In this document: one piece after another, positions 694-9,976 of the stretch
Layout of the letters: every line of letters starts with the position of its first letter
How positions within the stretch are numbered: position 1 is the first letter of the stretch
Source: Candidatus Enterousia sp.
Lineage (GTDB): Bacteria > Pseudomonadota > Alphaproteobacteria > Rs-D84
Direction: 5' to 3'
Length of the DNA stretch: 64,000 nt
NCBI GenBank assembly: GCA_045654485.1
Contig: JAZONN010000016.1
Coordinates: forward strand, 5,176 to 69,175
Translations under genes and position numbers: made by a program
Notes under the pieces: generated by a model
Seen by the model: only the letters and a program-made list of their open reading frames with translations
The model's database searches: none
What the model was told of the DNA's origin: nothing

Positions 694-719
694 AAAACCG
701 GCAAAAGCCGGTTTTTTTT
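692..719. terminator. Bidirectional hairpin terminator between convergent genes (A6-CCGGCAAAAGCCGG-T8)
   Basis: Perfect 5-bp GC stem flanked by an A-run and a T-run, between the stop of 67..693 (+) and the stop of 718..5337 (-). Confidence 0.75.
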
Positions 720-3700
720 AACCACCAATATTTCCATCCGATTTGGAAACATATCTTTCGTCAATACCAAATCGCTTCAAATCATCCCGTTGTTTAACAA
801 TATTACCCAATTCGGATTGGCCCATATCCAACCGGTCTGCAATTTTATCCCTTGATTGCACATTATATCGAACGGTAATTGGATTTGTTTTACCCCCCGA
901 TTTAAACATATACTTGGCTATATCAACCAACATATTATCAATAACCGCACGTGCGCCAATTGTTGTTAACACGGTCTTGCTAACCACCCCCGATCGCACA
1001 ACGGCCGAAATAATATTTTGCATATCTTCACCCGTCAAACGCCTACTTTCTTGGATAATATTACCATTTTCATCTTTGATTTCTTTTTGATATTCAACAA
1101 TATCAGACAAAGCGGTTAATCCACGTTTTACCCCATCGATATATGTTGAATTTGCCCCGAATCTTTGTGTAAATTTATCATTTGATTCACGCATTAATAC
1201 TTCGGACAAATCTTTGCCATTCTTAATAGATTCAACCATATCGCACAACAACATACCCAACATAACTTTTTCTGAAACATTTGGTTTTTTTTCCATTTGC
1301 GCACCGGTATCAAATATCCCAATCACAAAGTCACGAAATGCATGATTATAGAAATTTTGTTGACCTTGGTGTCGGTCTGTATCCCATTGTTTTCCCGCCA
1401 ACAATATACACAATTCCAACGTCACATACGCAACCGCAAAATCGTGTTTTTCTTCCGGCGTCCAATCATCTGTACTCAAAGATTTTCCCGCCGCCATTTC
1501 CATAACCTTGAATGCCGTACCAACCGGTGTTTTTCCATACGTTATCCAACGTGCAACATCCGGTGAATAATCACCCGTTTGGGTCGACACAGTTAAATTT
1601 TCATATAAATCCACGGCCTTTAAATATTTTGCATAATCTTCATCAATATTTATTTCTGCAATTGCAGATGTATATGCCTGATGCACAACTTTGGTCAAAG
1701 GTTTATATTTTTGATTTTTTTCAACGATTTCGGCAATTGTATTTTTAATCATATCCATACCGGTTATGGTTAAATTTTCAACATTTGGTCGCATTAACCC
1801 AACAACACATTCTATACCATCATACATAATTTTTGCCGTCACATAAAAAGAACCTGCCCCCAAAACTTCACCAACATGCGTTATTTTTGCTTTTACATCT
1901 GCCGGCAAAGTTATATCAATCATTTGATACAAATCATATCGTGATGGTATTGCGGCCTTGTCACGCAAATGTGATAATTCTTTACGAATATCTGAATCCA
2001 AATTCGGCATATAAGACAACAATTGTCCAAATTTAATAAACGCCGGCCCTTTGTTCTGCAGAAACATTTTAAGTCCCTGCCCCATGGCCTGACCTTCGGT
2101 CATATTATTATTTTTATCACGTTGTCCCGCACAAATAATCGCAGATATAATTAAATCACGTTCATAATCCGACAAATTATTATAAAGTGCATTAATAATC
2201 AATTCGGCATCATTACGATATTTAGAATCCTTTTCAAAAAACATATCAACCAACATATTTATCTTTTCTTGTTTGGTACGATATGCAGAATTCAATAAAC
2301 GATTAATAACAACCGCCCTTAATTCCAAACCCGCAGACCAAAAATTTTCATGCAACATCATAAACATTTGCTTGTTTGCATACATATTTACAACACTATT
2401 CAACTGCAATTCTTTAATCCCCCCATCACCCAGCAAACGTTCATAGCTTTCGTCTGTAAATCTTTCCGACAAAAACTTAATCATACTTGATGCATGTTTG
2501 GGATTTTTTGCCAATACGGACAGCAACATTTCCGCCCCACGCCCATAATCATCATACCTTTCGGCCATATCCCCAGACACCGGAACGATTTTTGCATCCT
2601 CTAATAATTCGGCAACTTTTTGCTGTGCAACTATTTTATCTGTAAACTTACGCACAAAACTGTTTGCAACCATACGTGAAAAAACATTATCGGAATCACC
2701 TTTTATCAAATCAACAACCGGTTGCAAATTTTCAACATACCGGCGTGTTCCATTATCACGCCCCAGATGCTTTGCCCAATATCCTGCATAAAAATCGATT
2801 AGTTTTTCACGTTCTGTGACAAACTCTAAATCATTATTTCTGTCAACCAATAACTTTCGCAACAAAATATCATGAACAATCTTAACATTTTTTTGATATT
2901 CATCCGAATTAACATCACGCACACTTGTTAATTTATCAACAATAATTTTGATATATTTATTTTTATTTGCCGTTTTCCCATAAAACAAATCATTTTTCAA
3001 CATGTTTTGAAACATACTGATTTGATTATCCAAGGGTTCTATTTCAAAAGATTTATTTTCATCCATATATTTTGCAAGTAAATTTTGCATTACATTACTA
3101 TAAGGCGTACGCAAATAAGGCAAAAATTTTTTTACATCAAATTTATAACCTGACAAAATATAGTTAAAAAATACAAATGTACCAATCCCCCTTCCCAATG
3201 AAATCCTGCGACCATCAACCGCACTTTTAACATTATACGCAGTAAAAAAAGTTAACAATTCTTCTTCTGTTTGTGGTTCTTTTACCCCCCAACGTTTCAT
3301 AATGTTTTTTAAAATTTGCGATTTTTTATTTTCTTCGAATTCATCTAAAATCGCATCTTCTAATACACACCAACTATCATTACCTGTATTAACCAGCGCA
3401 TCATTCTGCGATGCCACTATTGCAATTTTTTGCTGCTCTTTTTTTGCAATATCACGAAACAGATCACGTTCTTTGTTTACAATATCCCCTAAATAATTAT
3501 CATACTTTTTTCCATTTAATATTTCACGTGGCTTAAATAAAGTCCCACTTAACAACTTAAAAACTTCATTATATTCATACCATACATTAACACTGCATTC
3601 TGTATATCCGTGTTCGTTTTTATGTGCCTTTGTTGCATTTATATATTCTGAATATTTTGCATATGCACGTGCCGCCATAAACAGCAATTCTTTTACAACA

Positions 3701-8081: not shown

Positions 8082-9976
8082 CTTTGATGCCGCAATTGCA
8101 TTACATTTTTTATATAATAATGCGATTTCAAATTATTCAAATCATTTGATAATGATAAATTAAGAATCTTAAAATTTTCCTCCATTGAATCAATATATTC
8201 ATCAGACAAAGTGTTTAAGTATTTATTAAATCTAAGTATTGCTTCACAAATTCTTATAACACACGCCGCATCATTCATATAATAACCATTTATATATCGA
8301 ACGATATTATTTGCAGTAACCTTTTGTGAAGCACGAACATTTGGATTTTCATGTGGTTCTTCATTACCACGCACAAAAAAATCAATTGCCCGTGATGACA
8401 AAAACCTTTGATACAATTCCATCATTTCTGGAATAACCATATCATCACTACCAGAAAAATACTCTAAATATGGTGCAATTAATATGGTCGCATCTTGTTC
8501 ACCTTCACGCTTACTTAAATAAAATTGAAGCAATTGTTCATTTGATATTTTACCGGCCGCATAATCTGCAAAGGTATTTAAATAATCTATACACAAATTA
8601 AACCTTTCCGTATTTTTGTTTATCGTTTCTATCCGTTTTAATTTCGTTTTTTCATCATTATCTTCTTTATACAACCTTTCTGCTTCTTCGCCATACGCAA
8701 CAACAATACCATTTTTTATATAATAATTATTAAAATAACTATTTGGGTCTGGATAACGCAAATTATACCGCACATCAATCATAAAACAAACTTCATCGAT
8801 AACTCTATTTTTATACGATGCTAACTTTACTCTTGGCAATGGTTTCCCAATATTTTTTTCTTTCAAATCCGGATACATTGGTATTCCCGTTTTGAAACAC
8901 TTCATTAAATCCATTGTCCATTTCAAATCTAAAATTTTTTTCGCCCATTCTTCCGCTTTGGCTTCATCTTCATATGAATCCATAAAATTTTTTATATTAT
9001 TATATTGTTCTTCAAAGGGCCCAAACAAATCTAATGATGCTTTACTTAAAACATATTCTACCTGACCCGGCAATGCAACCTTTAACATTTCCAAAACTAT
9101 TTCTTGCAGTAATTTAGTTTCTTCTTTTGTCTTTGTCTGGAACTTATTCCCTATTATTACAGATAAATTGCGTATACGCACAACATGATTTCCATCAATC
9201 TCACGCACTTTAACCAATTCAAGAATTAATTTCAAAAATTCAACACGATTAATTTTTTCTAAATCAGTTGTTTTAAAACGTTCCAACAATTTTTTTTCAA
9301 TAAATGTATGAAAATCATTTGCCGGATACAAACTATTAAAATCACGTTGAAAATTAAACCAATCAAAGTTTTTATTTTTTATAATAGTATCAAAGTCACC
9401 AATTTCCGCCGCTTTTTTTGTTAAACACGCTTTGACATCTTCTGCACGTGCAAATGGTGCACCATGCACATCCAATGTAACATGATTATTTCCCTGATAA
9501 TAAAATATCTTGTTTTGCATTTCCAAGATATATCGTGGGTTATATCCGGCATTATACATTAATTCCACCGAATAAGCATCCGACCACCTTTCTTGGACAA
9601 TTGTATTATCACTTGACGTATTTTTTTGCCAAAAATAATGCCCACATTCATGTGCGATAACTGCGGCAATTTCTTCTTCTCGGTCCAATTTTCTAATCAA
9701 AGAATCAGATACCGCAATCACATTTTTCTTTAATCCAGAATTACGTGTATTTTCTTTATTCATAAAAAACGCATTTGGACTATTGCTATTAAAGCATAAA
9801 AATGCAAAATCATTGCTATCCACCCCCGTATTTTTACACAACCTTTCAAATACGTGTTTTACTTTTTCCCCAACCATTCTTGTCACAGAACTATCCAAAT
9901 CATAAAAACACAATTCTTCAAAATCATTTTGATGAATCCCAAGTTCATTTCTGGTATTATCGGTCATTTTTCCCAT
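8009..9976 (-). CDS. N-terminal portion of the second giant paralogue (M48-type Zn-peptidase domain plus unknown region)
   Basis: NAFFMNKE...EEIAAVIAHECGHYFWQK...QERWSDAYSVELM parallels the N-terminus of 718..5337. The likely start is the second ATG (MTDNTRNE, 9967), preceded by GGATGGGA. Confidence 0.8.
   Translation of the reverse strand: MGKMTDNTRNELGIHQNDFEELCFYDLDSSVTRMVGEKVKHVFERLCKNTGVDSNDFAFLCFNSNSPNAFFMNKENTRNSGLKKNVIAVSDSLIRKLDREEEIAAVIAHECGHYFWQKNTSSDNTIVQERWSDAYSVELMYNAGYNPRYILEMQNKIFYYQGNNHVTLDVHGAPFARAEDVKACLTKKAAEIGDFDTIIKNKNFDWFNFQRDFNSLYPANDFHTFIEKKLLERFKTTDLEKINRVEFLKLILELVKVREIDGNHVVRIRNLSVIIGNKFQTKTKEETKLLQEIVLEMLKVALPGQVEYVLSKASLDLFGPFEEQYNNIKNFMDSYEDEAKAEEWAKKILDLKWTMDLMKCFKTGIPMYPDLKEKNIGKPLPRVKLASYKNRVIDEVCFMIDVRYNLRYPDPNSYFNNYYIKNGIVVAYGEEAERLYKEDNDEKTKLKRIETINKNTERFNLCIDYLNTFADYAAGKISNEQLLQFYLSKREGEQDATILIAPYLEYFSGSDDMVIPEMMELYQRFLSSRAIDFFVRGNEEPHENPNVRASQKVTANNIVRYINGYYMNDAACVIRICEAILRFNKYLNTLSDEYIDSMEENFKILNLSLSNDLNNLKSHYYIKNVMQLRHQRWHLKREFHIVFLVNLNWVRNHSI
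8105..8111 (-). other. A_AAA_AAT heptamer (X_XXY_YYZ form) in the frame of ORF 8009..9976; a -1 shift here enters the frame of ORF 5385..8081
   Basis: Minus strand reads ...TAT ATA AAA AAT GTA... in the upstream frame. After a -1 shift it reads ...AAA AAA TGT AAT GCA ATT..., which is the downstream frame. Both frames are open across 8085..8132. Confidence 0.55.

Follow-up and report, generated by a model that had tools for sequence, protein, structure and literature searches.

The window analysed here is a 64,000-nt stretch of DNA from Candidatus Enterousia sp. (assembly GCA_045654485.1, contig JAZONN010000016.1, positions 5,176-69,175 of the forward strand). On its minus strand two adjacent genes, A and B, encode giant proteins in which an N-terminal zinc peptidase domain of the M48 type is joined through a long helical linker to a C-terminal module resembling the UbiB/ABC1 atypical kinases, a combination first proposed in an earlier reading of the DNA letters alone (the original prediction). 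Loci fetched from related genomes are labelled L001, L002 and so on, and distant members of the protein family P0040, P0063 and so on. The two genes and their parts are listed below with the basis for each in brackets (ORF, open reading frame; HMM, hidden Markov model; AF2, AlphaFold2).

718..5337, minus strand: gene A, M48-linker-UbiB-like protein of 1,539 aa, intact (ORF and 16 homologues)
4768..5256, minus strand: M48 core of A, aa 28-190 (PF01435, 3c37 profile match, Foldseek)
2113..4767, minus strand: helical linker or scaffold of A, aa 191-1075, ~880 aa (AF2 secondary structure)
1078..2112, minus strand: UbiB/ABC1-like atypical kinase-fold module of A, aa 1076-1420 (TIGR01982, hhalign, Foldseek)
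721..1077, minus strand: C-terminal tail of A, aa 1421-1539 (alignment, charge counts)
5385..9976, minus strand: gene B, M48-linker-UbiB-like paralogue, split here (ORFs, HMM, L001 alignment)
8009..9976, minus strand: N-terminal ORF of B with the M48 part, 655 aa (ORF list)
5385..8081, minus strand: C-terminal ORF of B with the UbiB-like part, 898 aa (ORF list)
8106..8111, minus strand: A6 homopolymer (T6 on the plus strand), one base short when compared to relatives (L001 alignment)

Gene A is intact and gene B is interrupted in the window

Gene A was confirmed as an intact minus-strand ORF of 1,539 aa, and the positions originally given for its motifs proved exact: HECGH at 5017-5031, ERGAD at 4957-4971, KFGQ at 2023-2034, GLMRP at 1786-1800, WDTDRH at 1369-1386 and FDTGAQ at 1297-1314. 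An exact look-up of the protein A sequence returned no record. Gene B adjoins A on the same strand, directly upstream in gene order. The second copy that had been placed at 5385..9976 does carry the same motifs as A (HECGH 9638-9652, KFGQ 6720-6731, ALMRP 6483-6497, WDTDRH 6063-6080, FDTGAQ 5991-6008), but it is not a single ORF in the window and consists of two ORFs that overlap in different frames. Identity between A and B is 34% across the N-terminal ~430 aa and 46% across the C-terminal ~735 aa, and the two proteins are hardly alignable in between.

When aligned with its orthologue in L001, a Candidatus Enterousia sp. metagenome-assembled genome (MAG) and the closest public relative, B showed 98% nucleotide identity with a single gap. 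The homopolymer at 8106-8111 is A6 in the window and A7 in L001 and L049, which are independent assemblies, and A6 was seen in none of the fetched loci. Restoring one A in B gives a 1,530-aa ORF with no further stop. The split thus reflects either an error of assembly in the homopolymer or a very recent mutation confined to this strain. Programmed -1 frameshifting at A_AAA_AAT was rejected as the primary explanation, since two independent assemblies carry a plain A7; as a separate observation, A_AAA_AAT in B is formally a -1 slippery heptamer, at which a -1 shift would give exactly the L001 protein sequence.

The N terminus is a Peptidase_M48 module

Profile, profile-profile and fold evidence agreed on the N-terminal Peptidase_M48 module that had been predicted. 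PF01435 matched A with 36.1 bits and B with 46.4 bits, above the gathering cut-off of 20.3, and covered part of the profile (positions 10-81 in A and 5-77 in B, of 186), up to the HExxH motif. The short coverage reflects a deletion in this family, of ~30-40 residues, in the segment that joins the HExxH helix to the Glu helix. A profile built from 16 full-length homologues found 3c37, a solved soluble M48 peptidase (E 9e-8), and a second aligned stretch placed the family ERxADxxxVDLLxxGYNP on 3c37 ENQADFLGVETMYKAGYNP and DVHG...R on FSTHP...R. E123 and D127 of A align with ENQAD...AGYNP of 3c37, which is its Glu-ligand helix, and DVHG corresponds to the His-containing lid motif. Besides, the AF2 model of A aa 1-769 has a mean predicted local distance difference test (pLDDT) score of 83.7, and its best Foldseek matches in the PDB were 3c37 and Escherichia coli BepA (6ait/6sar), with E 3e-4 to 1e-3 and probability 1.0.

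The core motifs of A are NAF (aa 65-67), HECGH (aa 103-107, and aa 109-113 in B), QERGAD (4957-4974) and DVHG (4840-4851). N65-A66-F67, H103, E104, H107, E123, D127, H165, G166 and R171 are invariant in 16/16 relatives. The reading of ExxAD as the third-ligand motif could be upheld, given the alignment to the 3c37 Glu-ligand helix and the invariance of its residues. Among 26 distant members, sampled for diversity and 15-21% identical to one another, HExxH is at least 90% conserved. The M48 domain carries a catalytically complete residue set and is probably an active zinc protease.

The C-terminal module is a distant, Lys-less relative of UbiB

The predicted likeness of the C terminus to UbiB/ABC1 was borne out by TIGR01982, hhalign and Foldseek and not by Pfam, where ABC1 (PF03109) matched neither A nor B at E<=1. 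TIGR01982, the NCBIfam UbiB model, matched aa 1059-1233 of A with E 3.4e-13 and B with E 7.2e-10; the match is partial, with 49 bits against a cut-off of 487.55 and profile positions 21-201 of 436. When a profile of the C-terminal 770 aa was compared with E. coli K-12 UbiB by hhalign, A aa 1081-1366 aligned on UbiB 49-331 over 269 columns (96% probability, E 3.8e-9). The AF2 model of aa 770-1539 has a pLDDT of 77.8 and a predicted template modelling score of 0.75, and its four best Foldseek matches in the PDB were 7cz2 (MSMEG_1954-ADP), 5i35, 7udq and 7udp (COQ8A). These ABC1/UbiB matches had E 5e-5 to 6e-4, probability 1.0 and a target TM-score of ~0.5, while ordinary protein kinases appeared in the same search at E>1e-2 only. 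MSMEG_1954 is a homologue of Rv3197, an ATPase conferring macrolide resistance (PMC8696161). PDB sequence-profile searches with the full-length or the C-terminal profile did not retrieve COQ8A. As Pfam ABC1 misses A and B, their link to UbiB rests on the NCBIfam, hhalign and fold matches, together with the direct ABC1 matches of 4/26 distant members (best E 4.5e-7).

The hhalign alignment with E. coli UbiB gives the following correspondences.

KxGQ extension: E. coli UbiB GPVWIKFGQMLST; family GPAFIKFGQLLSY
beta3 strand: E. coli UbiB VVIKVIRP; family VVGLMRP, with Lys replaced by G1180
Catalytic loop: E. coli UbiB HADMHPGN; family DTDRHQGQ
DFG-like motif: E. coli UbiB IDCG; family FDTG

In gene A, KFGQ is followed by GAGSF (1846-1860), GLMRP as the Lys-less beta3 segment, E1228, WDTDRH and FDTGAQ. 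Invariant in 16/16 relatives are K1102, G1104, Q1105, G1160, G1162, S1163, R1183, P1184 and E1228, as well as D1319, D1321, R1322, H1323, G1325, Q1326, D1343 and T1344. The absence of the canonical beta3 Lys, already noted in the original prediction, was confirmed by the alignment and holds throughout the close family, with G, S or A at position 1180 in 16/16 relatives (Gly in A, Ala in B). The Lys is kept by one of the 26 distant members (P0125), and the distant members conserve KxGQ, DxDRHxxQ and FDxGA. The Asn position of the HADxHPGN loop is Gln1326 in A. We class the module as UbiB-like and not as UbiB, a distant relative in which the fold, the KxGQ motif, the Glu and the Asp are present, the curated cut-offs are not reached and the Lys is absent.

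The canonical role of UbiB in ubiquinone biosynthesis looks unlikely in the host lineage. Enterousia has been placed in the order Rs-D84, with genomes of 0.75-1.0 Mb, no tricarboxylic acid cycle and no aerobic or anaerobic respiratory pathways (PMC12306168). It is the reported lack of respiration that makes a canonical coenzyme Q role of the module improbable in Enterousia, as judged from that publication.

Linker, tail and solubility

The linker of A is predicted by AF2 to be all-helical, and Foldseek returned just low-probability alpha-solenoid matches and no recognisable family. In the tail, the last ~120 aa, E1509 and G1524 are invariant within a conserved helix; in A the tail is slightly basic, with a net charge of +1 in the last 30 aa and +2 in the last 60. 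The last 30 aa are net positive in 14/16 proteins, which are otherwise acidic. The highest 19-residue Kyte-Doolittle mean is 1.41 in A and 1.14 in B, as compared to 3.4 for the transmembrane (TM) helix of the VirB4 protein encoded nearby. With means this low, neither protein has a signal peptide or TM segment, as had been stated.

PDB profile searches also suggested a weak stomatin likeness (E 0.0065; archaeal, A aa ~1445-1535, window ~733-1005) and a weak syntaxin-8 likeness (E 0.44) in the tail region, both judged to be chance or low-complexity helix matches. The syntaxin-8-like stretch comprises the invariant YIDGVxRGLTALSDIxEYQKExKDENGN (A aa 1397-1440, window ~1018-1149), and AF2 places YIDGVxRGLTALSDI inside the kinase C-lobe, not in a coiled coil.

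The fusion belongs to a large family

The M48 and UbiB-like fusion is not a rarity. The word-indexed homologue search returned 16 homologues of 1,478-1,723 aa with PF01435 in all of them, and a second such search, made with an alignment of the distant members, gave just 6 hits owing to its word filter. A profile search with the C-terminal module returned 889 representatives of 50%-identity clusters at E<=1e-3, 427 of them at E<=1e-30. Among the 150 matches listed, most are 1,400-2,500 aa long with the module in the C-terminal half, while the shorter ones look like fragments. Peptidase_M48 was matched in 22/26 distant members, and EF-hands in 2/26. Since there are 889 representatives and M48 is found in 22 of the 26 sampled, the fusion is, on these counts, an old and conserved architecture and not a local accident.

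The statement of the original prediction that no characterised protein with this architecture is known held up. Members are named only "M48 family metalloprotease/metallopeptidase" or "hypothetical protein", including one of the 16 homologues that is recorded as "M48 family metalloprotease [Alphaproteobacteria bacterium]". Full-text literature searches turned up no publication that deals with M48-UbiB fusions or with effectors of the type IV secretion system (T4SS) from the UbiB family.

Scanning one genome per species gave 41 loci in gut and rumen Alphaproteobacteria MAGs, namely Candidatus Enterousia, "Rickettsiales bacterium", RUG/RGIG bins and a 716-kb complete chromosome mislabelled Muribaculaceae. 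The B-type orthologue is full-length in ~38 species-level MAGs and is the widespread one, the kinase segment of B being nearest to most family members. A-type proteins form a derived, faster-evolving paralogue found only in the window, L001, L002 and L003. L003, L031 and two other MAGs likewise carry tandem or second copies.

Two further loci were observed in passing. At 1120-8132 of L045, three consecutive Pkinase-domain proteins (660-788 aa) are followed by P0152, a 2,506-aa protein without detectable M48, and the locus looks like an arsenal of kinase-fold proteins. L048 (GCA_037193645.1, JBANRU010533970.1) holds a 2,058-aa member on a 118-kb contig, in an assembly of more than 500,000 contigs. 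This assembly could stem from a eukaryote sequencing project in which a bacterial symbiont was captured, and would then give a lead to a host.

Both enzyme domains are under purifying selection

The ratio of nonsynonymous to synonymous substitution rates (dN/dS) was computed between the window and L001.

M48 domain: A 0.22, B 0.19
Helical linker: A 0.71, B 0.56
UbiB-like module: A 0.17, B 0.12

Both enzyme domains of A and B are under purifying selection. The linker is the fastest-evolving part, and the UbiB-like module has the lowest dN/dS in the protein. These values bear on whether the pair is a decaying duplicated relic, with the frameshift in B as ongoing pseudogenisation. The split of B and the genome reduction of the lineage (PMC12306168) would suit such decay, but the defect amounts to one homopolymer base, two independent assemblies from this species group are free of it, and an assembly error explains it equally well. 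B has no other stop, its enzyme domains evolve at a dN/dS of 0.12-0.19, A is intact, and full-length orthologues persist in ~38 MAGs; these lineages are reported to accumulate no pseudogenes (PMC12306168). We regard decay as highly improbable.

Selection on the UbiB-like module likewise bears on whether it is a true pseudoenzyme serving for ligand binding or docking only, with the protease as sole activity, a situation compatible with secretion or with none. The substitution of the beta3 Lys by G, A or S in 16/16 close members and its loss in most distant ones, the replacement of the Mg-binding Asn by Gln1326, the low-confidence model of the catalytic loop and the unmatched Pfam ABC1 all point that way. 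A dead site would be expected to drift, however, and here the catalytic Asp, the DFG-like Asp, the alphaC Glu and the KxGQ Lys and Gln are invariant. Moreover, a new invariant Arg (DxDRH) is found across a family diverged to <20% identity, the module has the lowest dN/dS of the protein (0.12-0.17), and the Lys-less kinase-fold proteins WNK, SelO and SidJ are active enzymes. On balance a pseudoenzyme is unlikely. A rewired and functional site is favoured instead, because the lid, the Glu and both Asp are kept and an invariant Asp and Arg have been gained in the loop.

Divergence between the window and L001 is uneven along gene A. The last third (kinase and tail) has a dS of 0.5-0.77, with 0.77 in the tail, as compared to 0.04 in the gene middle. 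This last third is window 718-1800, compared with L001 13200-14632, and the flanking rfb genes are nearly identical (99.3-99.7% protein identity, window versus L001). Because dS is high in the last third and low in the middle, A is a recombinant mosaic between strains, and the pattern indicates allele exchange or gene conversion at its 3' end.

Fusion genes lie near virB4 in loci of the Enterousia clade

Upstream of gene B, the following features were found on the same strand.

10080-13299, minus strand: rfbA-C-D-B, between orf208 and gene B
13375..14001, minus strand: orf208, a 208-aa protein with a hydrophobic, signal-peptide-like N terminus and an HExxH motif (AHENKH) (sequence, synteny)
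14002..16428, minus strand: virB4, the T4SS ATPase (PF03135; TIGR00929 E 4e-104)
16425..16781, minus strand: virB3-like small membrane protein of 118 aa, directly upstream of virB4 (NF010474 VirB3 E 0.022, weak)

The minus-strand gene order is thus virB3-like, virB4, orf208, rfbA-C-D-B, B, A. The N-terminal segment of VirB4 is strongly hydrophobic (Kyte-Doolittle 3.4 near residue 21), and the virB3-like ORF has two hydrophobic segments. As to the T4SS-containing block of the original prediction, virB4 and the weakly matched virB3-like ORF are there, but nothing more was found among the window ORFs scanned, and the pair lies 4 kb upstream with rfbACDB intervening. The window is otherwise ordinary chromosome, with pheST, metG, ileS, mreBCD, the PBP2 gene, rodA, topA, dnaG and others. 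Genes A and B each have a GC content of 34%, as compared to 40% in the remaining window.

virB4 and orf208 lie <=10 kb from the fusion gene in at least 9 loci (L001, L002, L003, L006, L008, L009, L010, L012 and L037). In L006, L009 and L010 the order virB4-orf208-fusion gene runs on one strand, with the end of orf208 700-800 bp before the fusion gene. In the 10 related loci orf208 always follows virB4. It evolves fast, its product being 79% identical to that of L001 while the neighbouring rfb genes exceed 99%, and it had no match in Pfam, NCBIfam or PADLOC; orf208 may encode a T4SS-associated secreted or periplasmic metalloprotein. The position after virB3-virB4 suggested a VirB6-like role of A and B as in Rickettsiales, which was rejected because they have no TM segment. 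Further away in the family, P0063 is flanked by an integrase, a TraG/VirD4-like coupling protein and a NikA-like gene.

Another distant member has recombinase, methylase, Vsr and AIPR genes in its vicinity, a setting that raises anti-phage defence or interbacterial antagonism, with the proteins as abortive-infection effectors or contact-dependent toxins. Large multi-domain protease/NTPase proteins are indeed common in defence islands. Yet no PADLOC model matches A, B or their neighbours, no conserved immunity-like small ORF accompanies the genes, the window context is housekeeping genes with virB3/B4, and conservation within the symbiont clade is vertical. A role of this kind is very unlikely.

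Some other observations concern the window itself. The first ~18 kb, where the large genes are all on the minus strand, show a strongly negative GC skew (-0.15 to -0.35) and a GC content of 31-38%, as compared to ~40% beyond (18000-64000). A promoter and terminator scan was uninformative, shuffled sequence giving more promoter-like sites than the real one. At 67-693 on the plus strand, convergent with gene A, lies a gene for a Cys-rich and Thr/Ser-rich 208-aa protein with a hydrophobic N terminus, which may be a surface or secreted protein. It matched no family, and among the fetched loci a homologue was found only in L012 (42% identity); L049 has a 208-aa gene at the equivalent position. Finally, the 223-aa protein encoded at 17223-17894 on the minus strand matches just the C-terminal core of SufB/SufD (PF01458; TIGR01981 E 6e-9) and may be a truncated or minimal Suf component in a reduced genome.

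Two proposed roles: export to a partner cell or internal membrane quality control

The interpretation that we prefer, and to which we give an even chance of being right, is that A and B belong to a family of giant soluble two-enzyme proteins whose rewired module binds nucleotide or lipid and targets the protease to a membrane, and which are exported via the linked T4SS. Each protein tethers an M48-type zinc metalloprotease to a UbiB-type module by an ~880-aa helical scaffold. The module would act as a rewired UbiB-type ATPase or sensor, probably still able to bind nucleotide or lipid, and would target, regulate or gate the protease at a membrane. The Enterousia-clade proteins would probably be exported to a putative partner or host cell, most likely through the VirB-type system.

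Characterised M48 proteases, among them HtpX, BepA, Oma1 and Ste24, act on membrane-associated substrates. ATPase activity has been shown for UbiB/ABC1/ADCK proteins, with no agreed substrate, and that of COQ8 is activated by cardiolipin membranes (bioRxiv 10.1101/149823). The simplest model, in which the kinase-fold module brings the protease to a membrane or gates it there, draws on both, as M48 enzymes cut membrane-associated substrates and UbiB proteins are membrane-activated ATPases (bioRxiv 10.1101/149823). Export itself is favoured by the virB4 linkage in the Enterousia clade, the lack of a Sec signal and the mostly basic C terminus of an acidic protein. It is favoured as well by low GC, mosaicism, variable copy number and the dependent lifestyle of the host lineage, Rs-D84 being predicted to comprise obligate symbionts or parasites dependent on other cells (PMC12306168). 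Judged from these genomic features, secreted-effector status is plausible, and we put export to a partner cell, probably by a VirB-type system, at about an even chance.

Several results weigh against this interpretation. On the enzymatic side, Pfam ABC1 does not match A or B at E<=1, and without the beta3 Lys the module may not bind ATP at all. The pLDDT also falls below 50 exactly across aa 1320-1346, the catalytic loop and DFG region, so that the active-site geometry is not readable from the model. As for export, neither virD4, virB6-B11 nor any other T4SS gene was among the window ORFs scanned. With only virB3/virB4 found there, a complete T4SS would need to have its genes dispersed over the genome, as is the case in Rickettsiales. 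Three of the four distant neighbourhoods examined (P0040, P0044, P0104) have no T4SS gene within 10 kb, the C-terminal charge is weak in A (+1) and in B (+1), and no eukaryote-like domain was found in either protein.

The main rival to export is internal envelope quality control, in which A and B would be cytoplasmic, unsecreted housekeeping factors and the UbiB-like part a lipid- or membrane-sensing ATPase that recruits or activates the HtpX/BepA/Oma1-like protease at the inner face of the membrane. The fusion could then compensate for chaperone or protease systems lost from a genome below 1 Mb. The known preference of M48 proteases for membrane-associated substrates is consistent with such a role. 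So are the membrane action of UbiB proteins, including the cardiolipin activation of COQ8 (bioRxiv 10.1101/149823), the retention of the B type in ~38 species-level MAGs under strong purifying selection on both domains, and the three distant members that sit among housekeeping genes with no T4SS nearby. A housekeeping factor, however, accounts poorly for the fast linker (dN/dS 0.56-0.71), the mosaic 3' end of A, a GC content below that of housekeeping genes and the conserved virB4 synteny. Length in the family varies from 1,478 to ~2,500 aa, copy number and accessory EF-hands vary as well, and the TM anchor that HtpX, Oma1, Ste24 and E. coli UbiB possess is missing. We consider this role possible and, on balance, rather doubtful.

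Within the export interpretation a more specific version can be put forward tentatively, as a long shot: in the partner cell, the Lys-less DxDRHxGQ module would be an active rewired enzyme that recognises an isoprenoid, another membrane lipid or a prenylated protein, and would hand its substrate to the Ste24-like M48 domain. Were an active lipid- or prenyl-directed module to prove true, A and B would represent a new class of translocated two-enzyme effectors. They would also hold the first UbiB-family domain that works outside quinone metabolism and whose substrate could be sought against a quinone-free background.

Significance

What UbiB/ABC1/ADCK proteins do biochemically is still not settled, although COQ8A is a human disease gene. 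The UbiB-like module described here, tethered to an M48 protease, consistently altered in its ATP site and under strong purifying selection in reportedly non-respiring bacteria, offers a natural quinone-independent setting for the binding and function of the fold. The fusion, the Lys-less DxDRHxGQ subgroup and the presence of a UbiB-type domain in a reportedly non-respiring lineage appear not to have been described before, and the public annotation "M48 family metalloprotease" misses half of the protein. The pair occupies ~1% of the genome, and these genes are among the largest of Candidatus Enterousia and its relatives, which are widespread, uncultured, reduced-genome bacteria of ruminant, horse, chicken and human guts. 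If exported, A and B would be prime candidates for molecules that mediate dependence on a partner organism.

Comparison with known systems

With M48 peptidases (Geobacter Q74D82/3c37 and BepA, and also HtpX, Ste24 and Oma1) the proteins share the NAF strand, the HExxH helix, the ExxAD Glu followed by GYNP, and the THP-lid His...Arg; as in BepA, a helical domain follows the protease. In contrast to these enzymes, A and B have a deletion of ~30-40 residues that brings the Glu helix closer to the HExxH helix, and the Glu lies 16 residues past the second His. They have no signal peptide, lipobox or TM segment, and the protease sits inside a 1,500-aa protein with a kinase-fold module.

With the UbiB/ABC1/ADCK proteins (E. 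coli UbiB, COQ8A, MSMEG_1954/Rv3197), the family is collinear in its KxGQ extension, the position of the nucleotide loop, the RP that follows beta3, an alphaC region of the ExD type, the catalytic Asp-x-His-x-Gly and the Asp-x-Gly of the DFG-like motif. The family differs in having G, A or S for the beta3 Lys, in a DxDRHxGQ loop where UbiB has HADxHPGN, with a new invariant Asp and Arg and Gln for Asn, and in a Gly-rich GAGSF loop where UbiB has an Ala-rich one. It also lacks the C-terminal TM helices, its module is fused to a protease, and its host lineage is reported to be without respiratory pathways (PMC12306168).

Besides these enzyme families, A and B can be set beside the SidJ/LegK-type T4SS effectors of Legionella. 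There is no sequence or fold relation between them past the general kinase fold, the translocation of A and B is putative and, to our knowledge, no effector from the UbiB branch has been reported. What they have in common is that they are large and soluble, without a signal peptide, come from a host-dependent bacterium, carry altered kinase-fold residues and show a link to a T4SS, which for A and B is a tentative one.

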